DNA from: Convolutriloba macropyga
Lineage: Eukaryota
Direction of reading: 5' to 3'
Assembly: GCF_964194025.1 (NCBI RefSeq)
Contig: NC_134470.1
Location: 37,882,001 to 37,946,000 of the forward strand
Length of the DNA stretch: 64,000 bases
Positions 53,692-62,795 of the stretch are shown here, piece by piece (positions within the stretch are counted from its first letter, which is position 1; each line of letters opens with the position of its first letter). Both the position numbers and the translations under genes were made by a program. The notes below the pieces were generated by a model. That model was not told where the DNA came from and searched no databases. It saw nothing but the letters and a program-made list of their open reading frames with translations.

Positions 53692-54377
53692 TGTAATATA
53701 CCTTTGTCCGGCTATATTATTGTGTTAAATTTGTTGAAGTAATGATTCTCGCTAATTTAATTAACTACTTAGTAACATGGCTTTTATTGCTTAAATTATT
53801 GTTTTCGCATGATTAATTGTTCAGGGCCTGAGCGGTTTCAATATTGCTCCGGAGCAGGGCCGACAGCTATAAGTTTTGTCACTAGAGAAAAAGATTTCAA
53901 TCTAAGACTAAATTACTCGTCTGCTGATTTGCAATTTGACAATCTTGGTTGTCGCTTAAATTATTACTTTTTAAGACCTGAGGGCCGTATTTACATTTGA
54001 GTAATCACTTATACAAATACATCAAGATTAACACAAGATAAATAGAACTTCTGGCGCGTGCTGACACGTGCCAGGCAAATAAGATGAACACAGTAAAGTG
54101 TACATTGTAAATATAAATACCGGTTAGCACTATCACAAATTCCTCTGTTATGGGTAAGTAAATCGAATAACAAAAGATAATTAAATGGTTTTTAGAAAAA
54201 ATATACTTGAGAAAGTTTTACAGGATGTTAATAAAGTAAATACATTTTCTCATCTTAATAAGGCAGAAAAATGAAGTCTATATATGGCCTTGAGATTATA
54301 GCAAATATAGCACTAAATAAGGCGATCAGTAAAATTGCGGGAAAAGATATCGATTACTATATAAAACGTACTTTACA
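53692..54377 (-). repeat. 3' LTR
   Basis: 53834-54374 matches 61372-61706 plus 62586-62785. Confidence 0.8.
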
Positions 54378-54558
54378 CAACCCACGTTTAATGAAAAAAT
54401 TAGATATAAATTTTTTGATAAAATACACAGATAAAGATATTAATAAGGAGCCACCCTTAAGTTTCTGTCGCGTTTTCGTCAGTTTCCATAGAGTCGTTAT
54501 TAAATTGCTGAAGAAATTCGGGCTTCACTCGGTTGGAGCGTATAGAAATTGTCGATTT

Positions 54559-56511
54559 TTATAGTCTAATCGGCAAATGGGGCTTTTGTGTAGTTGCAGA
54601 GATGTCAACTTTGTGATCGGTCATTGTTTTAAGAGCGCATATTTCATTGTCAAGGTATTGAATTTCCTCCTCAATTTTCAGGAGACGTGAATCTATATCG
54701 TTATCAATGTTTGTCTCTCCAACAATAGTCATCAAATTTTCTATTTTGTGGTCAAGGGACTGTATCTTTGTCAACTCACTGCTTGCAACCGAAACTACTG
54801 GTTCGAGAGGGATTTTTCCATCGGAGAATTTCATAAAATTGGGGGTTATTCGTTGGAAAAAATTGATCTTATGATACAGATACATTACTAGAATGTGAAG
54901 AAGATTTCCAATGAAGACTGTAAAAGGCAGAGTAAGGGGAAAGCTTTATTGGAACATAAGACTCTAACTTATCAACAAGGGAAGGCTTCAGTAGTTGCAT
55001 TTTGTGGACCAAAGGGGCTGCTATTTTGTCTAAATCGGCTCGTTTAAGAGTATCAGTTGTGATGATCATTTCTACTCTCAATTGTTGAAACAATTCAATG
55101 TTAGCATCCGTTTTCGACGTAAAGTAAAGGAGTTTCTCAATTTCGGGTAACGATGAAATCAGGTGTTGAAGAGGGTCAGCAAGTTTAACATCGATTCGAG
55201 TGGCTGGAATTGTTTGGCAACTCGAGAGGTCCGGTCGGATTTTGATGTGTTTGCTGATCAATTGGATTCCGCATTGGAGAGTTATTATGCAGAGTCGACA
55301 TCCCTCCTTCTCTTCACTGGTCGGTAACGAGGCATCGTTCAAATTGTATTCTCTCCACGCATATGGTTTTGCGCTCATGATTAGCCAAATCCCGTAACCG
55401 AGATTTCTGGCAGTTTCAGTCAATGGGAGCAGTACCTTTTCTGTTTGGCATACAGAAAGTGCAACAACTGTCGTGTGAAAAGTGTTGCTAAGCAAGACGA
55501 TTGTGCTAGATGAGTCTTTATTGTTTCGTGGCAGATACGATAAGTTGAAGATCCTAGACAGTTATCGAGCTGTTGTTGGGTCAATGTAGTCGTCTCCATG
55601 GAATCCTGCGAAATTGCCAACTATGGACCTTCGATGATCCATTGAAGGGCTTCTTTAGGATCCTGTTGAGGCCTTGGGATGACGTGTGCACTGTAGACGT
55701 AAAATGAAGTTTGACGGGATGCTAGAGGAACTGCTAGAGTCAAAAGTAATCCTTGTTCAACGGTGGCAATTTCGTAAACCAGTTTGGCATAATACGACAT
55801 GAGATCCTTCATGGGTATTGCCCGTGACAAACGATCTGTTGAGTGTTTCTAGCTATCATGAACTGAATCTAAGACAGCTAATAATGATTCGCGGGAAACT
55901 AAAGACATTGGTAATCGTTTATCTAACAGAATGGGTATAGAGTTTAGCAAGTTTATACTATAGGCATATAAAGCTGAACGATAGCTTTTGATGTCGGCGT
56001 ATAAAATTGATAACAATGAAGCTACAGTATTGAAGTTGAAATTTAATTGCTGATTTGAGAAGAGCATTTGTGTATAATCTAGTAAAAAGGAAAAATTTCT
56101 CGAAAATGTCGAATTGATTTTGTACTACTTTCCAGTTTTTATTTTGGTTATTTTGCATTTCCTGCTGGATTTCGGAAACTTTAGCTATTTCATTCGATAT
56201 ACTATTTCATTCGGAATCTTTAGCTATTTCATTCGCTCTGAGAAGTTTACTGGGCACAAAATTGACGGTTGTGTCCACATAGTTGCTAGTTTTTCGAGCA
56301 TATCTTCGATTTGTTGTTTCATAACAAAATCGTATTGCGGGAAAGGAACTAGGAAATCATCGTTAACGAACTTCTCTGCGAGTAGAATCTGTGATTCTTT
56401 GTGAAAAAGAATTCCTTTAGTTAGCGCTTCATATTTAGTTGGGGTCTCTGTATTAATAATTTCAGAAACTAAGAAGAAAAGAGAAAGAAATGAACAAATT
56501 ATTGTTTTCAT
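54559..56511 (-). pseudogene. env: env-like class I fusion glycoprotein remnant
   Basis: Signal peptide MKTIICSFLSLFFLVS, heptad-rich region, Cys motifs CLGSSTYRICHE, SCLATL and GCRLCIITLQCG. Many frameshifts. Confidence 0.8.
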
Positions 56512-56723
56512 CGTGAGAAAAGTAATGTGTACTGTAAGTCGAAATTTAAACCAAGTGACGTTCAATAGAGACCCGCTGTGTTGTTCTACTAATACTTGTC
56601 TCAATTGTTAACATTACCATACTGAGTTGATGTTCATTTTATGGTAAATAATTGCTCTAGCATTTTACATACAGATTTCCAATTATGGTGATGTTGATGT
56701 TTGATTTGTAATTAAACTAGTTT

Positions 56724-56824
56724 CTCCCAGCTGCACGGGTCGAGGCAGCGCTCAACCTGAGCCAGGGGGCAAATAATTAGGTTCTTACGGCACCATTTCC
56801 CAGCAACACGGGTCGAAGTTGCGC
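56724..56824 (-). other. Two tandem predicted H-type RNA pseudoknots upstream of env
   Basis: Minus strand GCTGC-CTCGACCCGT-GCAGC-TGGG and GCAAC-TTCGACCCGT-GTTGC-TGGG, with compensatory stem changes. Confidence 0.55.
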
Positions 56825-57324
56825 CACTTGCGGCTAATAATGCTAAGCAAGTAGGGCTAAGTGTTTTCGAGTTTTCTAGATTTTGATCTGTGTTTCAACG
56901 TGACCGTTTCAAATTCGACCCTTACATGTTGCCCCAATGGCACTTTTTATGGCAAGCTGGGTGTTTGGACAAGTGGCATAATACCGCAGTGCAAATCTGA
57001 AGATTTAATTCAGAATGAATCAGATCCTGCTCAGTTAGTGCTCAGCTTAATATGTTTGTTATTATCTATATTTATTTGTGTTATAAGTGGTCTGAGATAC
57101 AGACAAAGAATGAGGGAGCGGTTCGACTGGTTTTCTGAGGGCTTTATGGCATGCAGAGATTATCTTCCTCGTTTATTTTAACTTCTGAGGTTCATGTCAG
57201 TTATTCAGTTTTAATTCAGTTTCTAATTCAAGCAGAAGTGTTAGCGGTAATGAATTTATGAAAATTGCATCGCATGTTCATTTGAGCAGATTTATTGTTT
57301 GTGTACCATCAGGCTAGCCACATT

Positions 57325-59415
57325 ATACGGGTAAGTCATGCTCTGGAGTTGACTTTATTTTCAGTTCCGTATTGTATCCAACGTCAAATCGGCGTTTGGC
57401 GAAAATGTCACAATATTCAATTAATAAATGCTCACATTCTTCGATTTGCTTCTGGTTTAATGGCGTTGTTTTGTGTAAGCGTGCAATAGAACAGGTCCTT
57501 CAAGTAATTTGTTAACTGCATGTTCTATTTCTGAGTTGTCTGGCAGAATCTGCCTCACGGATTGTTCATTTCGTTTGGTAACCTAATGTATTAATTGCTT
57601 TTTCTCAGTGCTATTAACATTTGGCATGAATTAACAAGAGTTGCTTCATTCCAGTTGAAAATGACTAACTTTATTGACAAATGCTCCTGGTTATTGAAAC
57701 TGGCCAGAGAAGGGAAGTTTGAGAAATTTGGTTTCCGTAAGTTGCAGCCTCAAGAGAAGTGGGAAGTTAACGAGGGTGATAGTTTTCCAACTGAACCATT
57801 TTATCTGAGGGGGCCGGCTGCTGAGCACATATACTCATGGAATCAAGATTTAATGGAAGAATGGAACGGTGCTATGGTTGACGTCAAGGATTTTGTTAGA
57901 ACTGAAGGAGGAGTTATTGGTGCCAAAAATAGTGGAGATCATGGATACGGTGACTCAAATACAATTTCTTTTGAATTACCTTAAGAAAAGGTTAATTTTG
58001 TGGCTCACCCAGCGTTGAACATTATGAGTGCTGCCAGTATCACTTCTGTGGGGGGCCGCGTTTTGCATCGGCCATGTTTGAGATGGGGAAGTTTGTGCTG
58101 TGGTAGTCCTTTTTCAGTAGGTGGTTGACTCTTCTCAGATCAATTAAAATTCGCAGCTTGCCTGACTCTTTTCTATGAGCAAATAATGGACTACTGTAAC
58201 TAGACTATGACAAAGTTGTTTTAAGTCCATAGTAGTGCATTAATGCTAATTCAATATGTAGTTCGTCACACAGATGGATTGGGGTTGGTGGTCCTTGTAC
58301 ATATACGGGTAAGTCATGCTCTGGAGTTAACTTTATTTTCAGTTCCGTATTGTATCCATGGTCAAATCGGCATTTGGCGAAAATGTCACAATATTCAATT
58401 AATAAATGCTCACATTCTTCGATTTGCTTCTGGTTTAATGGCGTTGTTTTGTGTAAGCGTGTAATAGAACAGGTCCTTCAATTTGTTAACTGCATGTTCT
58501 ATTTCTGAGTTGTCTGGCAGAATCTGCCTCAAGGATTGTTCATTTCGTTTTGTAACCTAATGTATTAATTGCTTTTTCTCAGTGCTATAAACATTTGGCA
58601 TGAATTAACAAGAGTTGCTTCATTCCAGTTGAAAATGACTAACTTTAATGACAAATGCTCCTGGTTATTGAAACTGGCAAGAGAAGGGAAGTTTGAGAAA
58701 TTTGGTTTCCGTAAGTTGTAGCCTCAAGAGAAGTGGGAAATTAACGAGGGTGAGTTTTCCAACTGAACCATTTTATCTGAGGGGGCCGGCTGCTGAGCAC
58801 ATATACTCATGGAATCAAGATTTAATGGAAGAATGGAACGGTGGTCTGGTTGACGTCAAGGATTTCGTTAGAACTGAAGGAGGAGTAATTGGTGCCGAAA
58901 ATAGTGGAGAAGATCATGGATACGGTGACAATTTCTTTTATTTTGCATTACCTCAAGAAAAGGTTAATTTTGTGGATGACCCAGCGTTGAACATTATGAG
59001 TGCTGCCAGTATCACTTCTGTGGGGGGCCGCGTTTTGCATCAGCCATGTTTGAGATGGGGAAGTTTGTGCTGTGGTAGTCCTTTTTCAGTAGGTGGTTGA
59101 CTCTTCTCAGATCAATTAAAATTCGCAGCTTGCCTGACTCTTTTCTATGAGCAAATAATGGACTACTGTAATTAGACTATGACAAAGTTGTTTTAAGTCC
59201 ATAGTAGTGCATTAATGCTAATTCAATATGTAGTTCGTCACACAGATGGATTGGGGTTGGTGGTCCTTGTACATATACGGGTAAGTCATGCTCTGGAGTT
59301 AACTTTATTTTCAGTTCCGTATTGTATCCATGGTCAAATCGGCGTTTGGCGAAAATGTCACAATATTCAATTAATAAATGCTCACATTCTTCGATTTGCT
59401 TCTGGTTTAATGGCG
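57325..59415 (-). repeat. ~975-bp tandem duplication (about 2.1 copies) spanning the pol deletion junction
   Basis: atacgggtaagtcatgctctggag at ~57326, 58304 and 59275. The minus strand encodes PTPIHL..ELALMHYYG and YSSPLFA..SGKLRILIDLRRVNHLL..NFPISNM (RT start) joined to a GYNLRKP pol tail. Confidence 0.85.
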
Positions 59416-60059
59416 AATTTTCCCAGTTAATTTACTGAGAAAAATTTGTCGGTCTTCCTCATTACTTCGTGGATCAACCTTCTCCAACTTTTAGAAATTT
59501 AATATTTGTTCATAAATTTCTTGTTGTAAGAGCGGCAAATTACTTGGGTCCTCGCAAGTTTCTGTGTCGGATACCATAGTTTACTATATTCCGGAGGGGG
59601 TCTCCTAGTTTGGCCTGGTTTGTGTTGAGTGAAATCTTAGATAAGCTGGTTCAATTCCGCAAAATAATCATCTTGATTTTGCTAACGTTATCAGTTGTGG
59701 GTCAATTTTTATCAATTGGTCGGCTTGCTCGGTTGAAAGGATTGAGAATCTGCCTGCCTCTTTTCGGCTATTGATTGTGAGAGGGTGCTCAGTTACGTTT
59801 AGGGCAGAGACGTATAATGTAATATTCTTTCCTACTGTACTTAGCGAAGAAGTTAATGTAATTTCTGTTTCTTTTTCGAGAATTTCATTAGAAGTGATTA
59901 CTCCATTTTTGTTCTCAAACTGATCGGCTTTGTCTGATAGATAGTATTCCAGGAAGATCTGCTCTTTGGGCTGTATCGTGTGCTTCTTGTTTGTGTAAAT
60001 GGGAATTTTCTTATGTCTTACTGATCGTCGTTTTTCGTTTACAGGCTTGATTTCATTAA

Positions 60060-60423
60060 TTTGAACTGCAAATCGGGGAATTGAATAAGGGCTTGTTTTG
60101 GGCTAATTAAAATATCATGCTTGACAAAGAAAGGGTTGCCAAGGATGACCGAGTTTGTTGAGGAAAGGACAAGGAAGTCTTCAACAAACTCTGTTAGTTT
60201 TAATTTCGGCCTGTTTCTCTATTCTGACTAGTTGTCCTCCAGCCATTTTGACTGAAGTACAATCTGGTTGCTTCAATTTGACTGCGTTTTTGTCAGTTTC
60301 AGTAATTTCTTGAAGCAATCTGTTGCTTATGACATTTGCAGAAGCGCCGGTGTCAATTAGTACTCGACGGCTCATTCTGTTATTAAATTTAACTTTGACA
60401 TAGGGAAGAAGGGATGATCGCAT
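60060..60423 (-). pseudogene. pro: Retroviral-type aspartic protease remnant
   Basis: RVLIDTGASANVI, with a frameshifted ILGNPFF downstream. Confidence 0.85.
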
Positions 60424-60518
60424 ATTTGGGTTTATATTGTAAAGATTGAATAGTTTGGTAGGCTGCTCTATAGATTTCGTAGACTGTTTGCGACCTTTGG
60501 GCGTTAAGGGTGGCTTTA

Positions 60519-61350
60519 TTAGTTTTTTGATTGCCGATTAAATGGAAATGAGGTTCCTCTATTATTAGTTCTACCTCTCTGAGAACATTGACTTGATCGG
60601 TGATTTGGATAAACACATGTATAACAGAAGGTACCGCTGGAACTAGTCACAGGCATATATGGGCTGGTGGGCATGCGGAATTGTGACTGAGTTGTGAAAT
60701 TTCGAGGATAAAACACTTGAGCATTAGTGTTCGGGAACCGGGGTCTCGGATTTCTAAAATAGAAGTTTCGACCTCTAAGATTATTTCCTCTGTAAGAGTT
60801 TTGATACATTTGACTTGCATAGTTATTTTGACTTGCATAGTTATTTTGACTTGCATAGTTATTTTTGGGCGTATAGGGCGCCGCGGGGAATTGCCCCTGC
60901 CTATTAAATGATTGCTGGGGAGAGTGGGTTACATCTCTTTGTGTTGTTGTTTCTATCTGTGCCGCCGTGATGCGGTCGTCAATTGTTTGAAGCTTTTTGT
61001 CAAGTGAATCTTGCGTCTGGTTCAATTTAGAGAGCGCATTTATCAAATTTTCGGAAACGGCGTTATTGATTTTATTGAACCCATCTTCAGGATAGTCATC
61101 TTTTTTGCACATGTCTAATTGTCATCTGTTTTCGAGCAGTGGTGCAGAGATTGGTAACAAGCGTGGCTGGTGGTTGTTCCATCAATTTTGATCGCAGCCA
61201 TCCCGGCATGGCTTTAACGACCATTCGTTTCACTTGTTCGTTCTTGTTGTCCTCCGCTGCTTGCAATCTAGCAGCTCGTGCGGCTGTTTCTCCATCGAAG
61301 CGTGCGTGCTCTGCTCTGTCCCCTGCTCCTCCATCTCCTGGAAGCGCTAA
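60519..61350 (-). pseudogene. gag: gag remnant with CCHC zinc knuckle
   Basis: CYTCVYPNHRSSQC fits CX2CX4HX4C. The 5' part and PBS are deleted. Confidence 0.8.
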
Positions 61351-61371
61351 TGCTGCAACTGCTTGCTGAAG

Positions 61372-62795
61372 GGTTTCAATATTGCTCCGGAGCAGGGTCG
61401 ACAGCTATTAGTTTTGTCACCAGAGAAAAAGATTTCAATCTAAGACTGAATTATTTGTCTGCTGATTTTCAACTTGACAATCTTGGTTGTGTCGCTTAAA
61501 TTATTACTTTTTAAGACCTGAGAGCCGTATTTACATTTGAGTAATCACTTATACAAATACATCAAGATTAACACAAGATAAATAGAACTTCTGGCGCGTG
61601 CTGACACGTGCCAGGCAAATAAGATGAACATAGTAAAGTGTACATTGTAAATATAAATACCGGTTAGCACTACCACAAATTCCTCTGTTATGGGTAAGTA
61701 AATCGAAACATAGCCGGCAGATTGCCGGAAAATAGCCGCCGTTGATTCCAAAAAGCATGATTGGGATTGAAAGAACAGAAGATATTGAAAAAAAAAGATT
61801 TTTGTACAAAAAAATTTTGAAGTCCGATTTATTTTGATGGCATTTCGTAGTTGAACATAACGTACTTCTGCTTCTTATAGAGAGGCTACAGGGTCTACTA
61901 TCAATACCAATAAGCATTAGAGATGGTAACTAAGACTTATAGGTACGACGTTCAAATAGCGGGCATCTAAAATTGGGCTTTATGGGTTTATCCCGTTTCT
62001 ATTTCTGACTTCAATTTTTATACTGACTCTGTTCATTTTGAATTGCTTTGCTGAGCAATTCAAAATGAAGATGATAAGCATGATTCCAATAAGCATGATT
62101 GGGATTGAAAGAACAGAAGATATTGAAAAAAAAAGATTTTTGTACAAAAAAATTTTGAAGTCCGATTTATTTTGATGGCATTTCGTAGTTGAACATAACG
62201 TACTTCTGCTTCTTATAGAGAGGCTACAGGGTCTACTATCAATACCAATAAGCATTAGAGATGGTAACTAAGACTTATAGGTACGACGTTCAAATAGCGG
62301 GCATCTAAAATTGGGCTTTATGGGTTTATCCCGTTTCTATTTCTGACTTCAATTTTTATACTGACTCTGTTCATTTTGAATTGCTTTGCTGAGCAACTGA
62401 TGCTCAAAATCACTTTTAGCAGAATGAGAGAAAAGAGAAACTAGCCTAGAGAAGTCAAAAAGATTTCATGCAAAATGTTGAAAAAGCGGCAAAATGAGGT
62501 AAAGCGAAACATTTTTTTATTCGACGAAGTAAAAAAAAAAATAGGAGCGCTATAATAGCCGGCTGAGAAGATGAGGCGGCTATTAATAACAAAAGATAAT
62601 TAAATGGTTTTTAGAACAAATATACTTGAGAAAGTTTACAGGATGTTAATATAGTAAATACATTTTCTCATCTTAATAACGCAGAAAAATGAGGTCTATA
62701 TATGGCCTTCAGATTATAGCACTAAATAAGGCGATCAGTAAAATTAGGGGAAAAGATATATCGATTACTATATAAAACGTACTTTAGGACGTTAC
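61372..62795 (-). repeat. 5' LTR, truncated at its inner end and interrupted by a Helentron-type insertion
   Basis: Matches the other LTR on both sides of 61707-62585. Confidence 0.8.
61707..62585 (-). mobile_element. Non-autonomous Helentron-type (HINE) element with a ~338-bp internal duplication
   Basis: Inserted in aatcga|ataac (TT on minus) with no TSD; the empty site is visible in the other LTR. Minus strand shows a 5' subTIR AATAGCCGCC with partial IR, a 3' subTIR GGCGGCTATT and the hairpin CCGGCAATCTGCCGG. Confidence 0.85.

Follow-up and report, generated by a model that had tools for sequence, protein, structure and literature searches.

A conserved two-hairpin structure heads units of passenger genes in three kinds of mobile element of Convolutriloba macropyga, and the chief result of this work is that retrotransposons and DNA transposons have it in common. 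The structure was met as a twin motif in a window of 64,000 nucleotides (contig NC_134470.1, positions 37,882,001 to 37,946,000; coordinates below count from the first letter of this window). The twin motif is a real, selected structured element, apparently undescribed, which an earlier note had misassigned to env. The structured module is about 100 nt long.

The place given in that note for two motifs of ~28 nt is confirmed; they lie 73 nt apart, share the loop YTCGACCCGT and have TGGGA behind each. The switch of the stem from GCTGC/GCAGC in one to GCAAC/GTTGC in the other can be read directly in the sequence. The GC-rich island is equally clear, with a GC content of 0.59 in 56724-56824 vs 0.37 in 56300-57300, and the distance to env, given as ~210 nt, is 213 nt from 56724 to the env ATG (56511, minus strand). 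On the plus strand both cores have the same layout: YCCCA, a 5-bp stem arm, the loop ACGGGTCGNN, and the partner arm. The GGG in the loop of core 2 can pair with the CCC, giving a predicted H-type pseudoknot. Core 1 is unlike most other copies in its last loop base. The features are as follows.

56725..56749, plus strand: core 2, with CCC, a 1-nt A linker, the 5-bp stem GCTGC/GCAGC and the 10-nt loop ACGGGTCGAG.
56750..56762, plus strand: hairpin A2 (GCTCA/TGAGC), adjoining core 2; the equivalent hairpin covaries in other families.
56798..56822, plus strand: core 1, laid out as core 2, with the stem GCAAC/GTTGC.
56823..56834, plus strand: hairpin A1 (GCC...GGC), adjoining core 1.
56848..56879, plus strand: GTAGGG (56851), donor-like, and TTTTCTAG, acceptor-like (AG at 56878-56879), close by on the 5' side of antisense gene 1; a putative splice pair.

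A broken Ty3/gypsy-type element hosts the twin motif; it occupies the minus strand and is bounded by direct repeats of ~340 bp.

53828..54167, minus strand: 3' terminal direct repeat, LTR-like, ~340 bp.
54450..56511, minus strand: env gene, with stops and frameshifts in the window copy and ~805 aa elsewhere; the end coordinate is approximate.
56532..56538, minus strand: CTTACAG, resembling an acceptor, 20 nt 5' of the env ATG and 3' of both motifs on the env strand.
56888..57181, plus strand: antisense gene 1 (AS1), ~100 aa, a predicted membrane protein with a hydrophobic segment.
57324..61404, minus strand: gag, protease and partial RT, broken in the window copy.
61366..61707, minus strand: 5' terminal direct repeat, LTR-like, ~340 bp.

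An RT fragment of ~975 nt is repeated in tandem two to three times at window 57324-59453; neither an integrase nor antisense gene 2 (AS2) was seen in the window copy. The family was sampled by a DNA search that gave 41 genome matches, 20 of which were taken with 10 kb each. In less damaged copies, the gene order is gag-pol (RNase H, integrase, Macro domain), two opposite-strand genes, the twin motif, and env. The Macro domain (PF01661, above cut-off) ends pol after the integrase, as in L034:6515-9829. The acceptor-like site 20 nt before the env ATG is found in 17 of the 20 copies. PF12259 was detected in two env homologues, and a Pfam scan of one env found nothing. Because the motif lies between the divergent AS1 and env, it is not simply upstream of env.

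AS1 is kept across many env families (window 56888-57181; L101-L148). Its N-terminus is a signal-like peptide in some of these; in others, including the window family, it begins at the first Cys. The window copy has no ATG at the homologous position, and other copies start 63-64 nt from the core 1 stem. AS2 has 355-400 aa in the window family and may, with low confidence, be a JmjC-fold protein: its predicted model, with a pLDDT of 49, matched JmjC proteins (best E 3e-7), and a PDB sequence search gave no significant match. Copies of AS2 (L047:4736-5884, L034:4028-5170, L036:4921-5994, L033:4124-5317) have 20-43% identity, compared with ~90% on the env side, which suggests a fast-changing or swappable cassette.

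In the genome as a whole, the frequency of the motif is far above chance. Exact matches to CGACCCGT-N5-TGGGA number 88, vs 3 for the reversed control. The 25-nt core with 2 mismatches allowed gives 374 matches vs 0, in a pattern search of which 100 of the 374 matches are listed individually and which may miss more diverged families. A pattern scan of IMG/VR gave 0 matches. Metagenome contigs gave 119, which are GC-rich (median GC 0.67) with stems complementary at chance rate, and these served as a control.

Among the loci examined, mobile elements are the sole setting of the motif, and they are of three kinds: the env-bearing LTR clade of the window, a second LTR clade, and DNA transposons. 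The second LTR clade has a 1,702-aa pol with RT and integrase and a different env (PF24664). Here the motif follows env and three Cys-rich ORFs and lies ~375 nt before the last ORF of 400 aa, all on one strand. A further element with a PF24664-type env is found at L065/L098. Copies of the second clade are ~98% identical. In this clade the env region ends in a TAATG overlap, where the first Cys-rich ORF begins (L072, ~2,030 nt upstream of the motif; L091-L094), an arrangement that suggests stop-restart translation. The DNA elements carry a GDSL-like ORF, several unknown ORFs, and then SET and DUF1258/Transposase_21-like ORFs, and the motif heads the cluster. These elements appear CACTA-like, a label resting on Transposase_21 matches below the Pfam cut-off. 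In L051-L064 and L351-L366 the genes have one orientation, and an array of ~180-bp repeats follows the first gene.

Between element groups (45 pairs), core identity is 0.84, and that of all ten flanking windows is 0.39-0.47. L065 and the DNA element L051 also have an identity of 0.88 over the 25 nt upstream of the core, a sign that a cassette may have been transferred. Since copies of one family are related to each other, the counts represent three or four lineages. The earlier note's duplication does not generalise, since doubling is limited to the window family and other families have one copy.

The evidence for a fold is comparative. The earlier note spoke of covarying pseudoknots; the stem does covary, with 2 of 5 pairs changed on both sides, which bears out a selected secondary structure, but the 3 pairs of CCC/GGG show no compensatory change in 13 representatives. 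In the core alignment of these 13 hand-picked sequences, 95% of cells are paired, and 2/5 stem pairs have double changes. As many as 15 of the 25 core positions are invariant, several of these unpaired. The stem has three versions (GCAAC/GTTGC, GCTGC/GCAGC, and GCCAC/GTGGC), of which the TG/CA and CA/TG versions could in part stem from CpG decay. At the two free positions of the stem, Watson-Crick complementarity holds in 97/101 genome matches (loci L001-L150, some sites being counted twice) vs 6/119 chance metagenome matches.

A second hairpin, hairpin A, which was absent from the earlier note, adjoins the stem in most families and varies in length; it is missing or displaced in L056, L069 and L308. 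The alignment that includes hairpin A has 11 sequences, with 98% paired and double changes in 5/10 pairs. None of 500 shuffles reached its covariation score, although such scores are inflated by relatedness and L065 is aligned loosely in this set. L066, in which the loop matches and the 3' stem arm is lacking, was excluded from the alignments.

This picture does not extend to the knot. No compensation of CCC/GGG was seen in the 13 representatives, the 11-sequence alignment, or searches relaxing the first and second G; the latter turned up families already known, with single mutations, and also unrelated sequence that by eye was in several cases BEL/Pao-like coding DNA. As CCC/GGG is conserved but never compensated, the pseudoknot is a prediction; it is possible, though only 3 bp long. 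When the 151-nt region is simply folded, neither strand does better than its shuffles (z 0.72 and 1.02), so that the case rests on comparison.

The motif probably works as RNA on the plus (YCCCA) strand, to judge from its neighbourhood and geometry. In three other families, an ORF of at least 80 aa starts at most 700 nt downstream on this strand in 23/23, 29/29 and 12/17 copies; the same census of the opposite strand gives 1, 7 and 4 copies. TTYYAG lies 2-28 nt upstream of the core on the YCCCA strand in 17/23, 28/29 and 16/17 copies (background 3.8%; other strand 0, 6 and 0). The RNAalifold consensus is -20.08 kcal/mol on the plus strand vs -18.37 kcal/mol on the opposite one, and the plus strand has a U.G pair in 7/11 sequences. 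One family has hairpin A closed by a cUUCGg loop on the plus strand; this loop is a stable one. In the plus-strand knot, a 1-nt loop would cross the major groove of a 5-bp stem, near the CPK1 layout. On the env strand, a 1-nt linker must span the minor groove of this stem, compared with the 6-13 nt given for solved H-type pseudoknots (PMC6411933).

The window family itself speaks against the plus strand. Here the downstream ORF is found in 18/45 copies on the YCCCA strand vs 40/45 on the env strand, and TTYYAG is upstream in 0/45 copies. Identity within this family is 0.89-0.97 from hairpin A1 to env and 0.50-0.70 in AS1, for loci picked by a query that includes the motif. On the env strand a further helix, CCUA/UGGG, can also form, and it has a U.G pair in 10/11 sequences. 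MFE favours the env strand in 6/19 single folds. Single-copy stem changes giving G.U number 6 on the plus strand vs 1, too few to count.

Host trans-splicing enters the interpretation. A spliced leader (SL) is reported for the acoel Symsagittifera roscoffensis, with 30% of genes trans-spliced (PMC9911081). The present genome has 2,922 matches to the leader of that species and a tandem array of leader-plus-GT genes. The SL RNA genes stand in tandem on contig C9:23.1-23.6 Mb (L349, L350), with a 5S rRNA-like stretch, seen by eye, in each unit. SL exons are also dispersed without a GT donor, some of them fused near an ATG (L311, L312, L345, L346); these are likely retrocopies of trans-spliced messages. 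TTTCAG is located 3-12 nt before the AS1 ATG in 22/27 sister loci, and AS1 and other passenger genes may be trans-spliced. In L313-L342, TTTCAG, 2 nt, and GTAAGT or GTAGGT stand just 5' of the motif, possibly as a 2-nt micro-exon or a recursive splice site. The idea of an SL RNA mimic was rejected: in two stretches of the host SL array, neither exon nor intron resembles the motif, with no motif-like or loop-like match.

The reading that we prefer, at a probability of about one in three, is that the motif is a structured RNA element at the 5' end of passenger-gene transcripts, where it would hold up 5'-3' exonuclease until the transcripts gain a cap by trans-splicing. An exonuclease block was among the candidate roles of the earlier note, and it stays the leading guess for function. 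Plus-strand RNA would carry the motif at the head of the passenger-gene transcript, where the predicted pseudoknot would stall Xrn2 or Xrn1 on uncapped or read-through RNA. The stall would last until the spliced leader is joined near the ATG, capping the message. For the element in the window, the beneficiary would be the antisense unit AS1-AS2, coding for the small membrane protein and the putative JmjC-fold protein, and not env.

Exonuclease blocking might be supposed by analogy. In C. elegans operons, the Ur element with the SL2 snRNP is described as blocking XRN-2 (PMC7725455), and plant-virus xrRNAs are described as intergenic, ahead of coding subgenomic RNAs, and acting alone (PMC6299227). 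Each strand of the motif is genomic in one LTR clade, so a one-way block would be tolerable in a retroelement genome and an efficient ribozyme would not. However, the plus-strand loop would pair with the 5' flank, the side from which an exonuclease arrives, whereas class 3 xrRNAs use the 3' tail. An acceptor upstream of the motif would place the motif behind the cap, making a block less needed. Service to AS1 is further questioned by sister elements, which keep AS1 without the motif at 20/27 loci.

In its boldest form, this proposal sees in the motif a portable RNA of novel fold that blocks exonuclease unaided by protein, is exchanged between LTR retroelements and DNA transposons, and frees passenger genes via the host SL machinery; this is tentative and on the unlikely side. 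If true, the JmjC-fold, SET, GDSL-like and Cys-rich passenger genes would be issued as separate messages, making these elements transposon operons; if exonuclease is blocked, xrRNAs would extend beyond RNA viruses to animal transposons. How transposons express extra genes that are antisense to their main ORFs, or lie 3' of them, is for the most part little understood. That retrotransposons and DNA transposons reuse one structured module points to a common solution, traded between them. Titles and abstract openings in the open-access literature yielded no account of the motif or of an xrRNA in a transposon.

On the same strand and in the same place, the motif may instead be a splicing or translation control element, probably protein-bound, which selects the upstream or the downstream acceptor or represses an unspliced leader. 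This is a rather unlikely alternative. One group of DNA elements has TTTCAG, 2 nt, and GTAAGT/GTAGGT a few bases before the motif, and another has AG|GTAGG after it; a second acceptor stands just before the ATG. With the donor 5' of the motif in one group and 3' in another, no single splice geometry is kept. The invariance of 15/25 core positions, several unpaired, speaks for this reading, but the window family has no upstream acceptor (0/45), and there is the lack of likeness to host SL RNA.

It is improbable that the motif acts as DNA, that is, as a promoter or enhancer, possibly bidirectional and possibly cruciform, for internal transcription units. Its position, between the divergent AS1 and env in the window element and leading the gene cluster in DNA elements, would fit such a role, and Oikopleura Tor3b/4b elements are described as using an internal env promoter (PMC4402516). 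On the env strand, 16/20 copies have TATAAA ~51 nt behind motif 2, but TATAAA is common in AT-rich DNA. In a factor-binding site one would not expect two adjoining helices that carry compensatory changes, inserts of variable length and G.U pairs. A sigma-70 scan found nothing; the sigma-70 consensus is irrelevant to the host.

The earlier note's own proposal, twin pseudoknots acting on the env strand to make, protect, translate or package env-side RNA, is now very doubtful. In its favour, motif and env module go together in the window family, the env strand offers the extra closing helix, and pairing of the loop with the 3' tail is the class 3 xrRNA topology (PMC11702639). However, a role in making or translating env mRNA was not borne out by sister env loci: a core covariance model at E up to 5, which recovered all positive controls, found no match in 30/30 of them. 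These loci were found with a second env query, and 27/30 hold the region upstream of env. The motif thus is not needed for env and is not an env-specific cis element. It also occurs in elements without env and in elements where env lies upstream of it, and the strand chosen in the earlier note is antisense to the neighbouring genes in other motif-bearing elements. The 1-nt linker over a 5-bp minor groove is again far from the 6-13 nt of solved knots (PMC6411933). Finally, as the acceptor-like site 20 nt before the env ATG is 3' of both motifs, mature env mRNA would exclude them.

A self-cleaving ribozyme of an undescribed class, which would cut read-through RNA and leave the downstream gene to be trans-spliced or translated without a cap, is just as doubtful: the invariant loop and linker bases, the ribozymes described at the 5' end of R2 elements (PMC3774820) and viral 5' UTR ribozymes whose cleavage is said to aid translation (PMC13725137) speak for it, whereas no Rfam ribozyme matched five regions at E up to 10, HDV helix order fits neither strand, and efficient cleavage would cut one genome, the YCCCA strand being genomic in the LTR clade of ~98% identical copies and the other strand in the window clade.

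Comparison with known RNAs sets the motif apart from the classes considered. As the earlier note had held, there is no match to HDV or hammerhead RNAs: Rfam searches of five regions at E up to 10 gave weak unrelated matches only, with no ribozyme or xrRNA family, and the covariance models for hammerhead, twister, pistol and hatchet found no match there. Readings as twister, as a TURBS-type UGGGA reinitiation signal and as a Pol III B box were rejected since their flanking requirements are not kept across families. The env-strand UGGG...GCUAA resembles HDV J1/4 and J4/2, but this reading was given up, there being no space for P2/P3 beside the covarying stem. HDV-like ribozymes are described as having five helices in a double pseudoknot, with a P1' of ~7 nt directly behind P3/L3 (PMC3774820). 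By hand, this class was rejected on both strands, with no room for the P2 5' strand within the covarying stem, an inner loop of 3 nt, or a P1' of only 3 nt. The HDV-like ribozymes of R2 and L1Tc are alike in being structured RNAs that head a mobile-element transcription unit. They are found at the element end; the motif is internal, and its helix order and loop size do not fit.

Class 3 xrRNAs (xrRNA-LT of Tombusviridae/Solemoviridae; SCNMV, PLRV, ST9a), as defined in the text descriptions of PMC7668246, PMC6299227 and PMC11702639, share with the motif a compact hairpin, invariant loop bases, and an intergenic site ahead of coding ORFs; their pseudoknot, in which the loop forms 3-5 bp, has a predicted counterpart in the motif. 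Membership was rejected for lack of a P1/P2 stack, L2B or AGY. Where the class has a P1-J1/2-P2 stack, the motif has one uninterrupted 5-bp stem in 13/13 representatives, and it has neither the L2B sub-loop nor the AGY before the knot. On the env strand, its 10-nt loop leaves 2 nt between knot and stem, with a single U before GGG. Pairing of the apical loop with the 3' end is possible on this strand only (3 bp, 1-nt linker) and is without covariation; on the plus strand the loop would pair 5'. The class comes from RNA viruses, whereas the motif, with its predicted fold, comes from transposons of an animal genome. The flaviviral tandem xrRNAs (class 1/2) resemble the window family in their tandem duplication, but have a double pseudoknot round a three-way junction, which the window copies are without, and other families have a single copy.

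In geometry, the plus strand comes close to CPK1, an H-type pseudoknot in which a loop of 1-2 nt is reported to pass over the major groove in a 6-7 bp stem (PMC11262651); the motif would likewise have a 1-nt loop over the major groove of its second stem. CPK1, as described there, has no loop between the stems, while the motif has a second stem of 5 bp, a 2-nt loop between stems and a first stem of only 3 bp, and is followed by an adjoining variable hairpin. In setting, Oikopleura Tor3b/4b are env-bearing Ty3/gypsy elements with an intergenic control region ahead of env; the part of that account at hand reports no structured element, and in the window element antisense genes share the region (PMC4402516). 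In its proposed job, holding off XRN-2 ahead of a trans-splice acceptor, the motif is likened to C. elegans Ur (PMC7725455). Ur works with the SL2 snRNP in host operons; the motif, among the loci examined, is a part of mobile elements and is unlike the host SL RNA.
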